Below, piece by piece: positions 2,757 through 36,682 of a stretch of DNA of 64,000 nt; within the stretch, counting starts at the first letter, position 1; each line of letters opens with the position of its first letter. The position numbers and the translations under genes are program-made. Origin of the DNA: an uncultured bacterium (GTDB lineage: Bacteria; Patescibacteriota; Microgenomatia; UBA1400; UBA12108); contig CAJAUT010000006.1 of assembly GCA_903945195.1 (NCBI GenBank), forward strand, positions 493-64,492, in the 5' to 3' direction. The notes below the pieces were generated by a model. The model was not told the origin of the DNA, made no database searches, and saw only the letters and a program-made list of their open reading frames with translations.

Positions 2757-2920
2757 TAAATCTCAAATCCCACCTCGGGCGCGCGATGTTTTATCGCATC
2801 TAGCCAAACTCGACGGGAGAAATACAAATATCGATGTACCTATCCGGACTACTTAAACACCGAGATTAGCCCATTATATCAATCAATTTGTACCTTCGAT
2901 AATTGTGCTATGTCTTCTAG

Positions 2921-3000
2921 TGCCGAGGAGAGGACTTGAACCTCCATGAATTACTTCACACGCACCTCAAGCGTGCGCGTCTACCATTTCGCCACCTCGG
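2921..3000 (-). tRNA. tRNA-Leu (anticodon GAG), long variable arm
   Basis: Reverse complement GCCGAGGTGGCGAAATGGTAGACGCGCACGCTTGAGGTGCGTGTGAAGTAATTCATGGAGGTTCAAGTCCTCTCCTCGGCA. Anticodon stem CACGC/GCGTG, loop TTGAGGT. T arm GGAGG-TTCAAGT-CCTCT. Confidence 0.8.
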
Positions 3001-3336
3001 CAATTTGCAAAGATTAGTATTTCTACCAACTTTAGCAGTATTAACTTGTTTGTGTACCATTTCGCCCGCCTGCAACAGTTGTGCTGTAAGCACTGCGGGC
3101 AGGCCACCTCGGCAATTTGCAAAGATTAGTATTTCTACCAACTTTAGCAGTATTAACTTGTTTGTGTACCATTTCGCCCGCCTGCAACAGTTGTGCTGTA
3201 AGCACTGCGGGCAGGCCACCTCGGCAATCAATAAAAGTCAGGTATTGCTACCAACTTTATCTTATTAACTTGTTTGTCTACCATTTCGCCCGCCTGCAAC
3301 AGCTGTGCTGTAAGCACTGCGGGCAGGCCACCTCGG
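2991..3336. repeat. Tandem array of three 112-bp units (2991-3102, 3103-3214, 3215-3326) plus a 10-bp terminal partial (3327-3336). Each unit is the tRNA-Leu 5' end (nt 1-10), a 38-bp imperfect-palindrome hairpin, tRNA nt ~11-23, then ~50 bp of spacer.
   Basis: Units 1 and 2 are identical. Unit 3 has a diverged spacer but a conserved hairpin and tRNA pieces. Period measured from recurring CCACCTCGGC at 2991, 3103, 3215 and 3327. Confidence 0.9.
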
Positions 3337-3387
3337 CTTATTTAACGTGCAGGAGCAATTATACTACACCAAGTATGATTCTTAACT

Positions 3388-21687: not shown

Positions 21688-21700
21688 TCTCCACTAAGTA

Positions 21701-21928
21701 GCCGAGGTGGCCCGCCTGCAACGCTTGTGCGTAAGCACTGCGGGCAGGTGAAATGGTATATACACAAGTTAATAAGCAAATCATACTTGAAAGGGTATAA
21801 TCTTTCTTGTATTAGCCGAGGTGGCCCGCCTGCAACGCTTGTGCGTAAGCACTGCGGGCAGGTGAAATGGTATATACACAAGTTAATAAGCAAATCATAC
21901 TTGAAAGGGTATAATCTTTCTTGTATTA
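21701..21928 (+). repeat. Two tandem 114-bp units (21701-21814, 21815-21928). Each is tRNA-Leu nt 1-10 (GCCGAGGTGG), a 38-bp hairpin (CCCGCCTGCAACGCTTGTGCGTAAGCACTGCGGGCAGG), tRNA nt 11-20 (TGAAATGGTA), then spacer carrying GGGTATAAT.
   Basis: Units are identical. Immediately 5' of the intact tRNA-Leu(TAG). Same architecture as the 2991-3336 array but the hairpin is in the opposite orientation relative to the tRNA. Confidence 0.9.
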
Positions 21929-22012
21929 GCCGAGGTGGTGAAATGGTAGACACGCACGCTTTAGGAGCGTGTGCTTTACGGCATGGAGGTTCAAGTCCTC
22001 TCCTCGGCACCA
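21929..22012 (+). tRNA. tRNA-Leu (anticodon TAG), with encoded CCA
   Basis: GCCGAGGTGGTGAAATGGTAGACACGCACGCTTTAGGAGCGTGTGCTTTACGGCATGGAGGTTCAAGTCCTCTCCTCGGCACCA. Anticodon loop TTTAGGA. Confidence 0.8.
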
Positions 22013-31881: not shown

Positions 31882-32235
31882 ATGAGTAGAGTCACAAACG
31901 GTCCAGCCAAAAGAGCACGCCACAAAGCAGTCCTAAATCGTACCAAAGGTTTCCGCATGTCCAAGCATCGCCTCTGGAAAGTGGCCCACGAAGCCTATCT
32001 CCACGCTCTTGACTACTCCTTCCAAGGTCGCAAAGATCGCAAAAGTAACTTCCGCACACTCTGGATTGTCCGTATCAATGCCGCTCTACGCGCACTTGAC
32101 GCCACTTTCACTTATGGCCGCTTCATCAATGCCATGACTAAAAAGAATGTCATCCTAGATCGCAAGATCCTAGCTGACATGGCAGTAACAGATCCAGACA
32201 CCTTTGCCAAAGTCGTCAAACAAATCAATGGTTAA
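31882..32235 (+). CDS. rplT: 50S ribosomal protein L20
   Basis: MSRVTNGPAKRARHKAVLNRTKGFRMSKHRLWKVAHEA. Confidence 0.9.
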   Translation: MSRVTNGPAKRARHKAVLNRTKGFRMSKHRLWKVAHEAYLHALDYSFQGRKDRKSNFRTLWIVRINAALRALDATFTYGRFINAMTKKNVILDRKILADMAVTDPDTFAKVVKQING

Positions 32236-32408
32236 TTTTGCCCCCGTGCCCCTAGCGTAGTCTACCGACAAAGTGGGGCTTGCGTTTCATAGACTCATAG
32301 TGTATAGTTCCAATTTGCGAGAAGCAACCATCCGCACATTCCCACTAATAAGGGTTTGCTGACTGGAAGGTTGCTTTTGGCGTATCTAGGGGGTATATTG
32401 AAAACTAT

Positions 32409-32702
32409 ATGACACCTAAAAATCTAACTTCAGATCAAAAATTAGACTTACTACTTGAGAAGGTCTCCACGCTGGACTCCAAGGTCTCCACACTCGATTC
32501 GAAGGTCGAAGCGCTTACAATCACAGTCAATCGTATTGATATAAATGTTAAAGAGATCATTGCAACCCTCGCCGAAATTGCCTTACTCGCTGGAGAAACA
32601 GCTGATCGCGTCACCAAACTTGAAAATAAAAGCTCACCAGCCTCGACTAGCTCGAGTCTAGGCGGGTTTACCCCCTTTAAAAGCGGGGCGTTTGTAGCGT
32701 AA
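32409..32702 (+). CDS. Small coiled-coil protein with a duplicated VSTLDSK heptad, unknown function
   Basis: ORF only. Internal tandem repeat visible at the DNA level. Confidence 0.3.
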   Translation: MTPKNLTSDQKLDLLLEKVSTLDSKVSTLDSKVEALTITVNRIDINVKEIIATLAEIALLAGETADRVTKLENKSSPASTSSSLGGFTPFKSGAFVA

Positions 32703-32729
32703 ACTTTTCAAAGATTTTTACCCAAACCA

Positions 32730-32756
32730 CCCCGCAAAGCAGCGGGGTATTTTTTT
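32730..32756 (+). terminator. Rho-independent terminator (CCCCGC-aaagca-GCGGGG then TATTTTTTT)
   Basis: Perfect 6-bp GC stem plus a U-run, read directly. Confidence 0.6.
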
Positions 32757-32792
32757 GCCCCGCAATTACAAACATATAAATTTAAGGAAACT

Positions 32793-33032
32793 ATGAAAGA
32801 AAAAAGATTAATAATAATTAATAATACAGTCACACCAGACTCGAACGGGAATGACTTAGAAAAACTATCTGCACTACTAAATGAAGGAGTTGTGCCATCA
32901 GCCTCTGGAAATCTAGTATCACGTATAGCTCACGCATTGTCCAGGGTGATATCTGCAGAAGAAGCAGTACATAGAGCAACTCATCCTGGCGTAGATCATA
33001 GCGAAAGACCACTAAGTAAACCATTATCATGA
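32793..33032 (+). CDS. Hypothetical small protein
   Basis: ORF only. Confidence 0.25.
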   Translation: MKEKRLIIINNTVTPDSNGNDLEKLSALLNEGVVPSASGNLVSRIAHALSRVISAEEAVHRATHPGVDHSERPLSKPLS

Positions 33033-33047
33033 TGTTACAATAATCTT

Positions 33048-34832
33048 ATGACAGAAGCATTGTATTTATCAGACTCCTACCAAACTACCGCCACTGCTCA
33101 GGTGGTAGAGGTAGGAAGTAACTATCTAATCCTCAATCAAACAGTTTTTTACCCCCAAGGTGGCGGTCAGCTATCAGATAAAGGTACTATCAAATCTATA
33201 TCTGCGGAGCTACATGTCAAATCTGTCGAATACAATGGTGGAGAGATCAAACATGTTGGTACATTTAACGGACAGTTTACAGTAGGGGACAAAGTAACTC
33301 TGGAGATCGACTGGCCACTCCGCCTCAAAAATATGCAGCTACACACTGCGGGACATTTAGTAGATTTAATCGTCAGACAGATATATCCTACTCTCGTCCC
33401 AATTCGCGGTATGCACGGCATAGGTAAGAAACTCTTTGTAGAATACGAGGGAATTCATGATCTAGATCTAACCAAGTTAAATTCTGAGCTCACAACCCTA
33501 GTCGTTTTAAAACCCTCCATCAAAACCCAATTCGTCACACTAGAAGAACTAAAAACCATGTCCAATTGGATCCCAGAAAAACTCCCAACCAGCAAAAAAC
33601 TACGAGTACTGAGTATTGGAGATACTTATCACGTCCCAGATGGAGGCACTCAACTAAAATCTGGAGAGGCTATCTGGCCGATCACAGTAGGTATGGTAGA
33701 GCACGCTGAAAATTCTACTTTGATTCATTATCTAGTCGCAGAGCCATTATCTAAACCAGTCATAATAGAAAAGTTCGATGGTTCGAACCTGCCTCGCGTC
33801 AAGGCGGGCCATCGAACCGCCTCACCTACAGATATCGATAGCTCGATATCGCAATCAGGCACTACTTTTGCAAACGATCTAGATACGGTCAAATCTTCTT
33901 CAGATCTAGACGCTCTTTACCTCAAATACTTCGGCAAGAAGGGTATCACCACAGAGCTACTAAAGAGCCTGCAAGGCCTGGCCTTGCAGGACAAAAAGAC
34001 CTACGGTCCAGTCTTAAACGAACTGAAAAAATCCCAGGAATCTCAAATCGAACAAAAGAAAAAAGACCTTTCACTTCTCACATCCCATTTCTCGATTGAT
34101 TTAACTATTCCAGGTCACGTCAAACCCATCGGTCGCCTCCACCCCACAACCGAGATCATCCGCGAGATGAACCAGTTTTTCACGCGCCAAGGATTTTCTA
34201 TCGGCGAAGGACCAGAAATCGAAGATATCGAGTACAACTTCCGCCGTCTCAATCTGCCAGAAGGTCATCCCGCCACAGACTTGCAGGACTCTCTATTTAT
34301 CGAAGAACCAAATCTACTCATGCGCACCCACACTTCTTCAGTCGAGACTCGCATGCTTAGTGACCACAAGCCACCCATGCGAGTCGTAGTTCCAGGTAAA
34401 TGTTATCGCAACGAAACCACTAGTCTCACCAATGCCGCCTTCTTCTACCAGTACCAAGGGTTTGTAGTAGACAAAGGTATTACCATCGGGCATCTTAAAG
34501 ATACCCTCACCAAATTCCACCAGTTTTTATTTGGTGATGATGTTGTACTTCGTTTCCGCTACAAATATTACCCCGAAGTTAGCCCTGGAATGGGTGTGGA
34601 CATGCAGTGTCAATTTTGCAATGGATCTGGTTGCAAAATCTGCAAATTCCGCGGTTTTGTCGAGGTACTAGGGTCAGGCATGATTCACTACAATACTTTA
34701 AAAGCATGTGGTATTGATCCAGAAATCTATTCAGGTTTTGCCTTTGGCATGGGACTAGATCGTTTAGTCATGTCCAAATACGGCATTACAGACATTCGCA
34801 AACTCTACGGAGGTGAAATAGCATATCTATGA
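33048..34832 (+). CDS. pheS: Phenylalanyl-tRNA synthetase alpha subunit carrying a ~260-aa N-terminal AlaX-M-like (tRNA_SAD/trans-editing-type) domain
   Basis: N-terminus: FYPQGGGQ Gly-rich motif and HTAGHL (HxxxH). From ~residue 270: LYLKYFGKKG plus class II catalytic core motifs of PheS. Single uninterrupted 594-aa ORF. Confidence 0.75.
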   Translation: MTEALYLSDSYQTTATAQVVEVGSNYLILNQTVFYPQGGGQLSDKGTIKSISAELHVKSVEYNGGEIKHVGTFNGQFTVGDKVTLEIDWPLRLKNMQLHTAGHLVDLIVRQIYPTLVPIRGMHGIGKKLFVEYEGIHDLDLTKLNSELTTLVVLKPSIKTQFVTLEELKTMSNWIPEKLPTSKKLRVLSIGDTYHVPDGGTQLKSGEAIWPITVGMVEHAENSTLIHYLVAEPLSKPVIIEKFDGSNLPRVKAGHRTASPTDIDSSISQSGTTFANDLDTVKSSSDLDALYLKYFGKKGITTELLKSLQGLALQDKKTYGPVLNELKKSQESQIEQKKKDLSLLTSHFSIDLTIPGHVKPIGRLHPTTEIIREMNQFFTRQGFSIGEGPEIEDIEYNFRRLNLPEGHPATDLQDSLFIEEPNLLMRTHTSSVETRMLSDHKPPMRVVVPGKCYRNETTSLTNAAFFYQYQGFVVDKGITIGHLKDTLTKFHQFLFGDDVVLRFRYKYYPEVSPGMGVDMQCQFCNGSGCKICKFRGFVEVLGSGMIHYNTLKACGIDPEIYSGFAFGMGLDRLVMSKYGITDIRKLYGGEIAYL

Positions 34833-36682
34833 AAATCCCACTAATTTGGCTTAAAGATTATGTGAGTTCTGATAAATCAGCTAAGGATCTAGCCACTAGC
34901 TTCACCCAGCTAGGCCTCATGCTGGACAAGCCACTTGATGATTCTAATGTCCTAGATCTCGAACATCGCATGGACCGCTCTGATTGGCTATCCATCCTCG
35001 GCTGTGCCCGCGATCTCTCAGCTTTTGAAGGGATCAAGCTCAACTACCCCAAACTATACAACAAACCTGGGCTAAAAGTATCTGAAGAAGAAAAAATCAA
35101 AATCCAAGTAGATACCCCAGTAGTTAAACGTTTTGAGACCAGGATCTTCAAAGGTGTCAAGGTAGGCCAGTCACCTACATGGTTGGTAGATCGCCTCAAA
35201 GCTTATGGCATGGAGTCCATTAACAACATCGTAGATATCACAAATTTTGTCATGATCGAATACGGCCAAACTTTGCACGCTCAGGATATTGCCAAACTCA
35301 AAGGCAGAGATATCACTATTAGACAAGCCAAAGATGGTGAAAAAGTTACAACACTGCTTGGGACCGAAGTAAAATTAGACAAAGATATTTTTGTTCTAAC
35401 CTCAGGTGGAGAGGTGACTGTAATAGGAGGCATAGTAGGTGGCAGAAACACAGGAGTTACAGACTCAACTACTGACATCATCCTCGATTCTGGCAATTAC
35501 GATTCGCGAATTATTCGAAAAACTTCTCGTAGGATAAAGATACTCAACGAATCAGTCTCTCGCAACGACAAATTTCTGGACCCTAGAGCTATCGACTTTG
35601 CCCTAGACAGAGCCACTGGTCTCATCCTAGAGCTAGCAGGAGGTACCTACTACACAAACGACGATTACTATCCCGTTCCAGTTGAGCCAAAGACCATGAC
35701 TCTTAGACTCTCCCGTCTAAAACTCTTGTCAGGCATGGATCTAAATCTGAGTCTTGCCTCAAAAATCTTAGAATCTCTAGAGTACAAAATCCTACAAAGC
35801 AACGAGGATACTCTCACAGTCGAGATCCCATATTTCCGCACCGATATAGAAGTCGAAGATGATCTAGTCTCAGATATTTTGCGTATCAATAACTACACAA
35901 ATATTCCACTTACCCCGCTTTCTACTCCAGTTCCATTGGATTTAACCCCGGCTATTTATAGATTCGAAGAAAAACTCAAAGACTTACTAGTCGCCCAAGG
36001 TGCCCACGAACATATCACTAGTTCGCTGACTACTTCAGAGGGGCTTAGTGACGAAGTAGTCCTAGCCAATGCCTTGTCTAGCGATCAAAATGCTCTACGT
36101 CGCAGTTTAAACCCTGGGTTAGTTCATGTGCTATCTACCTACAAAAAACACAAAATAAAAAACGCTTTAGTCTTTGAAATCGGCAAAGTCTTCCGCAAAA
36201 ACAATACAGCCTATTTAGAAGGAAGACTTTTGACCATCATGGGAGGAGTAGACTCACTTGCCACCTTACTTTCTTCACTGGGGATCACTAAATATTATGT
36301 AAATGACAAATACGAAATTTTATTAGACGACAATATTGTAGGGACAATCGATGCTGTCAGCTACACCTTAGTTACCACAGCTCTTATCTCACATATGACC
36401 CCATATACAGGCATCATTTCTGAGTATGGGCACACGACTTCTCTTGATTTATCCCTCTTAGTCAGAGCAGATTTAAAATACTCAAATATTTTAAAAGCAC
36501 TTGAGTCAGTGAAAGGGGAGTGGGAGAGTATTTCCTGTAAATCCATGACCGTCATGGATGACAAAACTCACAATTATTTGATTTCAGTGTCTTGGGACAG
36601 TAGTACAAAATCAATAGACTCTGACAAAGATCTAATCCTAAAAACTCTGAAAGATAAACTAGAAATCAACTCGAAATCTTAA
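34829..36682 (+). CDS. pheT: Phenylalanyl-tRNA synthetase beta subunit (short form)
   Basis: Follows pheS with a 4-bp overlap. B3/B4 and B5-like regions. 617 aa versus ~800 in E. coli. Confidence 0.75.
   Translation: MKIPLIWLKDYVSSDKSAKDLATSFTQLGLMLDKPLDDSNVLDLEHRMDRSDWLSILGCARDLSAFEGIKLNYPKLYNKPGLKVSEEEKIKIQVDTPVVKRFETRIFKGVKVGQSPTWLVDRLKAYGMESINNIVDITNFVMIEYGQTLHAQDIAKLKGRDITIRQAKDGEKVTTLLGTEVKLDKDIFVLTSGGEVTVIGGIVGGRNTGVTDSTTDIILDSGNYDSRIIRKTSRRIKILNESVSRNDKFLDPRAIDFALDRATGLILELAGGTYYTNDDYYPVPVEPKTMTLRLSRLKLLSGMDLNLSLASKILESLEYKILQSNEDTLTVEIPYFRTDIEVEDDLVSDILRINNYTNIPLTPLSTPVPLDLTPAIYRFEEKLKDLLVAQGAHEHITSSLTTSEGLSDEVVLANALSSDQNALRRSLNPGLVHVLSTYKKHKIKNALVFEIGKVFRKNNTAYLEGRLLTIMGGVDSLATLLSSLGITKYYVNDKYEILLDDNIVGTIDAVSYTLVTTALISHMTPYTGIISEYGHTTSLDLSLLVRADLKYSNILKALESVKGEWESISCKSMTVMDDKTHNYLISVSWDSSTKSIDSDKDLILKTLKDKLEINSKS

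Follow-up and report, generated by a model that had tools for sequence, protein, structure and literature searches.

An AlaX-M-type domain with a variant active-site motif fused to the phenylalanyl-tRNA synthetase alpha subunit of Candidate Phyla Radiation bacteria

AlaX-superfamily editing domains have been described in alanyl-tRNA synthetase (AlaRS), in threonyl-tRNA synthetase (ThrRS) and as free-standing proteins. The 64,000-nt stretch of DNA analysed here (positions 493 to 64,492 of contig CAJAUT010000006.1 from an uncultured bacterium, GenBank assembly GCA_903945195.1; the whole stretch is referred to as the window) was found to carry a single gene encoding an AlaX-M-type domain, a linker and PheS, the alpha subunit of phenylalanyl-tRNA synthetase (PheRS). 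An AlaX-superfamily fold on PheS is a new synthetase architecture, and its active-site motif here is a variant one. Searches of a full-text library yielded no account of an AlaX-PheS fusion, in bacteria of the Candidate Phyla Radiation (CPR) or elsewhere, nor was a published account met of the palindrome that lies at the junction of the two domains; homologues are annotated publicly as PheS or as 'alanine--tRNA ligase-related'.

With AlaX-M (Pyrococcus horikoshii PH0108, PDB 2E1B; P. furiosus, PDB 9IUW) and with AlaRS the domain shares its two-subdomain fold and the FYPxGGGQ and HxxxH motifs, and AlaX-M, which has a similar length of about 230 aa, matches it significantly in sequence; AlaX-M is free-standing, whereas the domain in the window is fused to PheS and has DxGxQ for CxGxH. 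With bacterial PheS (TIGR00468) the protein shares the helical arm, the class II core and the pheT partner, and differs by an N-terminal extension of about 260 residues. The N2 domain of ThrRS is a known AlaX-superfamily domain that lies N-terminal to a class II core and edits the product of its own enzyme; in N2, which is a constant component of its enzyme, HxxxH and CxGxH are intact, whereas the domain in the window is an optional partner of PheS with an altered motif. Apicomplexan tryptophanyl-tRNA synthetase (TrpRS) likewise has an AlaX-family domain (AXD), with a long flexible linker, at the N-terminus of a synthetase that is neither AlaRS nor ThrRS (PMC3680381). The Plasmodium AXD is AlaX-S-like; none of its four metal ligands remains (D, S, N and V stand at these positions), and it is considered non-catalytic and needed for tRNA binding. 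The domain in the window, by contrast, is AlaX-M-like, with both His residues and a conserved Asp, and close relatives do without it. BesG, of the AlaX family, and CtdA, of the B3/4 family, are likewise accessory and patchily distributed derivatives of synthetase editing folds, each protecting a single tRNA from a single analogue; they are free proteins, often encoded in biosynthetic clusters, whereas the module in the window is covalently fused and has no biosynthetic genes nearby.

The NCBIfam AlaXM model matched residues 2–216 of the fused protein, which starts MTEALYL, with E=1.1e-35 (123.5 bits), and the closest solved structures by sequence were the AlaX-M proteins of P. horikoshii and P. 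furiosus (E=2e-20 for PDB 2e1b). In Pfam, the C-terminal part of tRNA-synt_2c was matched at residues 13–89 (E=2e-15), and no match to the tRNA_SAD profile was obtained in the fused protein. The AlphaFold2 (AF2) model had predicted local distance difference test (pLDDT) values of 91–98 across residues 1–232. Foldseek aligned this part with P. furiosus AlaX-M (9iuw, TM-score 0.84) and with 3kew (TM-score 0.83) at a root-mean-square deviation of 2.7–3.1 Å, and with structures of the AlaRS editing region at 2.4–3.0 Å. An AlaX-M-like N-terminal domain had been proposed in an earlier note made from the letters alone (hereafter the sequence-only reading); profile, solved-structure match and a predicted fold of about 230 residues bear this out, and the two motifs that it quoted, FYPQGGGQ and HTAGH, are present at residues 34–41 and 99–103.

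In an alignment of 13 fused homologues G38, G39, G40 and Q41 were each at least 90% conserved, and in two smaller sets FYPQGGGQ was entirely invariant. Both His residues of HxxxH are present in 77 of 78 fused homologues, the exception (P0127) reading QSAGH. The second motif is altered, in that the Cys and His of CxGxH are replaced by Asp and Gln (D198-G-G-T-Q202). Both HxxxH and CxGxH have been called invariant, the latter from the last universal common ancestor onward; the Cys of CxGxH is reported to be crucial to proofreading in the AlaRS and ThrRS editing domains, and zinc to be dispensable for deacylation by AlaX-M but protective against oxidation (PMC12003907). The sequence-only reading had described the second motif as degenerate. 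The absence of Cys from PDGGTQ was confirmed, but xPDGGTQ is read by 73 of the 78 fused homologues, and DGGTQ is a subfamily signature rather than a product of decay. Two fused proteins have the variant DGGTH, and since three divergent fused lineages keep a canonical or near-canonical motif (CGGTH or a close variant in P0134 and P0135, CGATH in P0127) the ancestral fused domain probably had canonical CxGxH. After the conserved His123 the protein reads HGIGKK, where canonical CPR AlaX proteins read HFPDGP. The positions conserved among fused homologues (F34–Q41, D44, R92, H99, H103, H123, K183, R186, D198 and T201) include elements of the known pocket, namely the Gly-rich motif, H99, H103, H123, D198 and T201, and also R92, K183 and R186. 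Between the window and the fused locus L086 the ratio of nonsynonymous to synonymous divergence (dN/dS) was 0.135 for the N-domain and 0.064 for PheS; the AlaX-like domain is under purifying selection.

Motif type and linkage to pheS were counted over 170 loci matching the N-domain, four unfused pheS loci without the domain being left out. Loci with the Asp motif comprised 27 fused, two adjacent to pheS, two running off a contig end and six unlinked, and those with the Cys motif none fused, two adjacent to pheS and 77 unlinked, counts that come from related and not phylogenetically independent sequences. The domain belongs to a distinct AlaX subfamily that is strongly associated with pheS, either fused to it or encoded immediately upstream. 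Free-standing AlaX-like proteins with Asp for Cys (xDGGTQ or xDGGTH) were also seen distant from pheS, in CPR and DPANN-type archaeal contigs (L006, L008, L010, L031, L038 and L041), so the Cys-less variant is wider than the PheS fusion. A conserved DxGxQ in place of the 'invariant' CxGxH provides a natural test of the roles of Cys and zinc.

Residues from about 262 to 594 make up a normal PheS, with N-terminal helical arm and class II core. Phe_tRNA-synt_N (PF02912) was matched at residues 283–341 (E=1.8e-12, Pfam), the core is 73–94% identical to proteins labelled PheS in the source databases, and the first residue of unfused PheS proteins aligns with residue ~262. Against TIGR00468 the fused protein scored 222.3 bits, just below the equivalog cut-off of 237.45. 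The AF2 model of the core was poor (pLDDT <50 at residues 388–465; predicted TM-score 0.47), and it is uninformative on the placement of the two domains relative to each other. The gene is preceded by thrS-infC-rpmI-rplT and followed by pheT, as in the usual order thrS-infC-rpmI-rplT-pheST, in a window of ~41% G+C. No stop, frameshift or in-frame linker start codon separates the two halves, so that fusion to a normal PheS, another claim of the sequence-only reading, stands. An internal start for separate translation of PheS was rejected, as the stretch from residue 233 to residue 300 has no in-frame ATG, GTG or TTG and nothing resembling a Shine-Dalgarno sequence was seen by eye.

At least 78 full-length fused homologues were found at 31–86% identity. 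A word-indexed search gave 68 fused 90%-identity clusters at 56–86% identity, and a full scan of 1.84 billion representatives added about ten at 31–41%; the sources were NCBI, JGI, ENA and Logan assemblies. A word-index search with the N-domain only peaked at 43% identity despite the existence of 86%-identical fusions, which is a limit of the index and not biology. At the DNA level seven further fused contigs (by protein look-up) and 20 fused loci in JGI metagenome contigs were read, and the GTDB species genomes yielded two fused loci (L003, L004) and one pheS-adjacent locus (L005) in which the AlaX-like protein is a separate open reading frame (ORF) upstream of pheS. NCBI labels one fused cluster PheS of 'Microgenomates group bacterium GW2011_GWA2_46_7', and unfused near relatives carry the names Woesebacteria or Microgenomates. 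The fusion is lineage-wide and occurs mostly in Microgenomates/Woesebacteria-like CPR bacteria, an assignment that follows the names attached to homologues P0312, P0353 and P0381. Some CPR-type loci bear implausible GTDB titles (L003 'uncultured Gammaproteobacteria', L005 'Pseudomonadales'; also L029) that are unfit for taxonomy. A joining of neighbouring alaX-like and pheS genes by a sequencing frameshift or assembly chimerism, for which the more distant relative L001 offers a starting point in principle (separate genes with a 4-nt overlap, which a single-base error could join), is excluded for practical purposes by the many independent fusions from several assembly sources at protein and DNA level, by a linker that has no start codon for an independent PheS and by linker indels among relatives that are all multiples of three (21, 36, 21 and 18 nt); the fusion gene is genuine.

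Table 1 Features of the fused gene and its surroundings, in window coordinates
Feature	Coordinates	Strand	Basis or description
Fused gene, AlaX-M-like domain + linker + PheS	33048..34832	+	Single uninterrupted ORF, 594 aa; Pfam and NCBIfam matches to both halves
AlaX-M-type domain (beta-barrel subdomain + editing-fold subdomain), residues 1-232	33048..33743	+	NCBIfam AlaXM, PDB 2e1b match, AF2, Foldseek
Gly-rich motif FYPQGGGQ, residues 34-41	33147..33170	+	Conserved among fused homologues
HTAGH (HxxxH) motif, residues 99-103	33342..33356	+	Both His conserved (see text)
PDGGTQ, residues 197-202, replacing PCGGTH (CxGxH)	33636..33653	+	Alignment with canonical CPR AlaX proteins
Inter-domain linker, residues ~233-261	33744..33830	+	Predicted disordered; AF2 pLDDT <50 at residues 236-259
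Junction palindrome	33773..33817	.	Arms 33773-33787 and 33809-33817; 21-nt GC-rich hairpin insert 33788-33808
PheS N-terminal helical (coiled-coil) region, residues ~262-346	33831..34085	+	Pfam Phe_tRNA-synt_N at 283-341; AF2 helices at 263-346
Second small inverted repeat, GATATCGA-TAGC-TCGATATC	33831..33850	.	Just 3' of the junction palindrome; 8-nt arms in the window, L086 and L089
23-nt palindrome, CCTGCAAGGCC-T-GGCCTTGCAGG	33968..33990	.	Within the PheS N-terminal region; codes LQGLALQ
PheS class II catalytic core, residues 350-592	34095..34823	+	tRNA-synt_2d PF01409, E=6.4e-72; Foldseek matches to bacterial PheRS alpha chains
pheT, 617 aa	34829..36682	+	B3_4 (7e-51), B5 and catalytic-like domains (Pfam); 4-nt overlap with the fused gene
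Segment missing from the nearest unfused relative (L088)	32753..33888	+	blastn

The AlaX-like domain is accessory and dispensable in close relatives. In loci L083, L084, L085 and L088 the gene order is unchanged and PheT again has 617 aa, but PheS is a plain protein of 333–346 aa without the AlaX domain. The fused L086 and the unfused L083 are 90–96% identical in the DNA of the flanks and show a clean difference of ~820 nt directly after the shared start region. By blastn, positions 1–74 of L088 corresponded to 32679–32752 of the window (98.6%) and positions 169–1641 to 33889–35361 (90.3%). The PheS core of the window is 98.4% identical to that of the unfused P0339 and only 91.3% to that of the nearest fused protein, and fused and unfused proteins were thoroughly interleaved in a neighbour-joining tree built from this core, where 21 of the 52 unfused ones had a fused protein as their nearest neighbour. 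The 20 residues preceding the core group by fused or unfused type and not by core similarity; the window protein and P0339 share six of these 20 residues and 307 of 312 in the core, P0339 and P0340 share 19 of 20 and 279 of 312. This conflict between 5' segment and core points to recombinational exchange of the 5' segment, or to its repeated gain and loss. Near-identical PheRS with and without the module form matched pairs for asking what benefit extra proofreading brings to a minimal-genome cell.

As for its function, we tentatively favour the reading that the AlaX-like domain is an optional, putative deacylase tethered to PheRS. It would hydrolyse wrongly acylated tRNA leaving the synthetic site, most plausibly mis-acylated tRNAPhe. 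With another residue in place of the Cys that contacts the substrate, the domain has probably moved away in amino-acid specificity from classical AlaX, which acts on Ser/Gly, and zinc binding is probably altered or lost. This proposal draws on the conservation of pocket residues, on the co-occurrence of the altered motif with pheS linkage and on analogy with BesG, which edits beta-ethynylseryl-tRNAThr and indicates that AlaX-family members can evolve other specificities (PMC13149037). The conserved Cys-less variant could reflect either a changed substrate contact or loss of hydrolysis.

Several points weigh against a deacylase. A need for Ser/Gly-type editing is not known for PheRS, and this PheRS has a B3/4 editing domain of its own. 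The AlaXM equivalog cut-off is 300 bits, far above the score given earlier, so that the domain is a homologue and not an equivalog of AlaX-M; the linkage counts are not independent, as noted with them; and dispensability in near relatives means that the function of the domain is not essential. The Cys reported to be crucial (PMC12003907) is absent, so catalysis may be lost, and the AlaX-like domain appended to Plasmodium TrpRS is thought to aid tRNA binding and not to edit (PMC3680381).

The last two points lead to a less probable account, in which the domain no longer hydrolyses and instead provides an additional arm that binds tRNA or enhances aminoacylation, as has been suggested for apicomplexan TrpRS. 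Such an arm might partly replace the tRNA-binding B2 region of PheT, of which ~120 residues are missing in the alignment with Staphylococcus haemolyticus PheT. The paired changes of Cys to Asp and His to Gln would suit this account, that Cys being called crucial (PMC12003907), as would the long linker tether and the need for tRNA binding in the precedent of the Pf-TrpRS AXD (PMC3680381). However, over 31–86% identity hardly any variation is seen in HxxxH, the Gly-rich motif, H123 or the new Asp, as is typical of a working pocket, and close relatives with an unfused PheS have the same B2-less PheT, so that compensation is not needed. The sequence-only reading had noted that pheT is short and had suggested that the new domain would be an alternative editing or tRNA-binding module. 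PheT is indeed short and without the B2 region, with 617 aa in fused and unfused relatives alike; compensation for lost PheT editing is unsupported, since the B3/4 match is strong and relatives with the same PheT beside an unfused PheS are without the AlaX domain. Relative to S. haemolyticus PheT, some B3/4 motif positions read LD for LE and RNDKF for RFE(R/K)G (NESVSRNDKF for SEASSRFEKG), changes that do not by themselves establish a loss of editing.

It is more doubtful still that the domain is a trans-editor of the alanine system, hydrolysing Ser- or Gly-tRNAAla like free AlaX, with the fusion only securing co-expression in the thrS-infC-rpmI-rplT-pheST operon. Such a role would agree with AlaX-M and the AlaRS editing domain being the closest characterised relatives of the domain, with the common occurrence of free-standing AlaX genes in CPR genomes, with the location of about half of the AlaX-family genes close to an aminoacyl-tRNA synthetase gene (PMC13149037) and with the few fused lineages that retain CGGTH or a close variant (P0134 and P0135; CGATH in P0127). 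Yet the close tie between the Cys-to-Asp change and pheS linkage suggests that function has shifted, and co-expression would not call for a covalent bond with one particular synthetase that has persisted through deep divergence.

The DNA that encodes the linker has a structure of its own. The junction palindrome is made up of a left arm GTTCGATGGTTCGAA, a 21-nt insert CCTGCCTCGCGTCAAGGCGGG and a right arm CCATCGAAC; the outer arms GTTCGATGG / CCATCGAAC pair perfectly over 9 bp, the inner stem is CCTGCC / GGCGGG, and the insert, which codes LPRVKAG, forms a hairpin by itself. The folding energy of the stretch 33772–33825, -23.2 kcal/mol, ranks 10 of 12,790 overlapping 50-nt windows, with a shuffle z-score of only -2.3, and the exact sequence of the palindrome is single-copy in the window. 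Relatives have, at this codon position, perfect palindromes of 14–30 nt that differ in sequence: an uninterrupted perfect 24–26-nt palindrome GTTCGATGGTTCGAACCATCGAAC in L086, L087, L089 and L091, GATGAATCGATTCATC in L090, ATGGTTCGAACCAT in L092–L094, GTGTTACCATGTTTTAAAACATGGTAACAC (30 nt) in L095 and L096 and, with one mismatch, in L097, and TGTATCGATGATTCGAATCATCGATACA (28 nt) in L100. It is weak or degenerate in L098, L099 and L101, and none was seen in the more distant fused families (L003, L004, L105, L108–L113).

In an alignment of 11 sequences both sides had changed in ten of 14 mirror pairs, the structure being derived from these same, related sequences; the covariation score was 0.370, against 0.136±0.031 for shuffles (none of 500 reached 0.370) and no more than 0.123 when the partners were slid. 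In ten relatives the mean folding energy reached its minimum for the gene at the junction site. Between the window and L086 the synonymous divergence (dS) of the linker was 0.105 versus 0.93–1.25 in the flanks, about ten-fold lower, with dN/dS of ~1.15, values taken over 43 codons only; the protein sequence of the linker is not conserved and the DNA is. The linker DNA carries a dyad-symmetric element kept by compensatory changes, of which the structure is conserved and not the sequence. In four lineages in-frame, GC-rich, self-complementary insertions lie at or beside the dyad centre: 21 nt in the window, 21 nt in L173 (15 of 21 identical to that of the window), 36 nt in L172 and 18 nt in L174, there within an unrelated TTTTAAAA-type palindrome. 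The GC-rich part is a secondary insertion inside an older, AT-richer palindrome.

The sequence-only reading had pointed to a GC-rich palindrome that stood out in an AT-rich genome and might mark the fusion or insertion event. The palindrome, which may or may not record the fusion, is real, lies at the junction and belongs to a conserved element; that its GC-rich part marks the fusion is unsupported, this part being a 21-nt insertion found in the window and, in related form, in L173. The stretch 33772–33825 has 63% G+C versus 41% for the window, and 62% is reached by only 0.7% of 50-nt windows, but at 100-nt resolution the G+C content of the region (0.49) is not exceptional. A palindrome in a coding linker represents an unexplained constraint at the nucleic-acid level, which could be relevant to the origin or the expression of domain fusions.

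Our leading guess, which is no firmer than a possibility, is that the palindrome acts at the domain boundary as a hairpin, formed either in mRNA or in single-stranded DNA, selection keeping the stem and GC-rich insertions at its tip strengthening it. Such a hairpin may pause the ribosome so that the AlaX domain folds before PheS emerges, or may stabilise or process the mRNA. The paired changes and covariation score described above, the minimum of folding energy at the junction in ten relatives, the toleration of G-T pairs on the sense strand and the location in a disordered linker, where the protein sequence is free to vary, all fit an RNA stem, and the insertions in the window, L172, L173 and L174 can be taken as apical stem extensions. 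On the other hand, most copies are perfect through the centre (TTCGAA, TCGA, TTTAAA), which an RNA loop does not require, the element has no U-run, Rfam match or downstream start codon, and it is absent from more distant fused families.

The perfect dyads, centre included, are what would be expected of another possible explanation, to which we give the same tentative standing, namely a DNA-level feature without a role in the product: either a quasi-palindrome maintained in perfect form by intrastrand template switching, or a scar or hotspot of recombination or insertion tied to gain and loss of the AlaX segment. Indels fell exactly at the dyad centre in four lineages, synonymous divergence in the linker is unusually low, the palindrome ends 3–4 codons before the start position of unfused PheS, and the AlaX segment is present or absent with a conflicting phylogeny. 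The palindrome at 33968–33990 behaves alike: its perfect 11-nt arms are kept by paired changes in L086, L092 and the unfused L083, some of which alter an amino acid (Q to K, A to T), so that the protein has changed for the repeat to stay perfect. This palindrome is absent in L089–L091 and L095, and the small inverted repeat at 33831–33850 was not seen in L090 or L091. Against a DNA-level origin, the window yielded neither a recombinase nor a repeat family nor a second copy, the palindrome fits neither an integron attC site nor an intrinsic terminator by eye, and the breakpoint between fused and unfused DNA (33889) lies ~70 nt downstream of the palindrome.

Other identities of the palindrome were considered and set aside. 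An intrinsic (Rho-independent) terminator does not fit, as the CCGCCTCACCTACAG that follows the stem has no T-run and the reading frame runs through; nor does an integron attC site, compared by eye. No covariance model of Rfam 15 matched at E<=1 in 32200–34200 on either strand. A repeated mobile element is unsupported, the 21-nt insert and both arms being single-copy in the window, and a loose search for CCYGCC...GGCRGG returned only unrelated GC hairpins and one different 20–44-nt palindromic repeat in other CPR loci. Mimicry of a tRNA T-arm (GGTTCGAACC) was rejected, since other lineages keep the palindrome with unrelated sequence.

A more speculative proposal, which we consider improbable, joins both subjects: the AlaX-like segment together with the junction palindrome would be an exchangeable 'domain cassette', swapped on and off by recombination among related CPR bacteria at the 5' end of an essential synthetase gene and giving a new, Asp-based proofreading. 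The Cys-less AlaX site would then act against a non-protein or wrong amino acid met in certain habitats only, and the palindrome would be either the site of recombination or insertion or an RNA signal required for expression of the two-domain protein.

Some further features were observed near the fused gene. Within it, 33071–33120 (codons 8–24) is predicted to form a hairpin of -25.5 kcal/mol, the third most stable 50-nt window, which recurs only weakly in relatives (at residue ~21, -11.1 kcal/mol on average). A 79-aa ORF (32793–33032) in a stretch of low G+C (29–33%) separates the fused gene from the conserved region upstream; L086 has only ~20 nt at this site, so the window carries an extra insertion of ~255 nt just before the fused gene. 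Further upstream, a 97-aa ORF (32409–32702) contains a 21-nt tandem repeat (VSTLDSK repeats) and is coiled-coil-like, and small ORFs of relatives at its position have a weak Pfam LPP match. A terminator-like hairpin ACCCCGCAAAGCAGCGGGGT at 32729–32748, 3' of this ORF, is common to fused and unfused relatives.

Elsewhere in the window, tandem repeats lie beside two tRNA-Leu genes. The repeat at 2991–3337 (112 nt, 3.1 copies, 94% matches) adjoins the gene at 2920–3001 on the minus strand, and that at 21699–21938 (114 nt, 2.1 copies, 100% matches) the gene at 21929–22012 on the plus strand; the repeat units share a strong GC hairpin (CCCGCCTGCAAC...GCACTGCGGGCAGG) and rank among the most stable folds of the window. 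In other CPR contigs a perfect palindrome CCTGCCTGCCGGCAGGCAGG is repeated, at 2364–2383 in L109 and L110, ~120 nt upstream of their fused AlaX-PheS gene, and at ~4275–4318 in L140 and L141, where it is extended to ~44 nt (tgtcattgcgag...ctcgcaatgaca); it may represent a small family of palindromic repeats.

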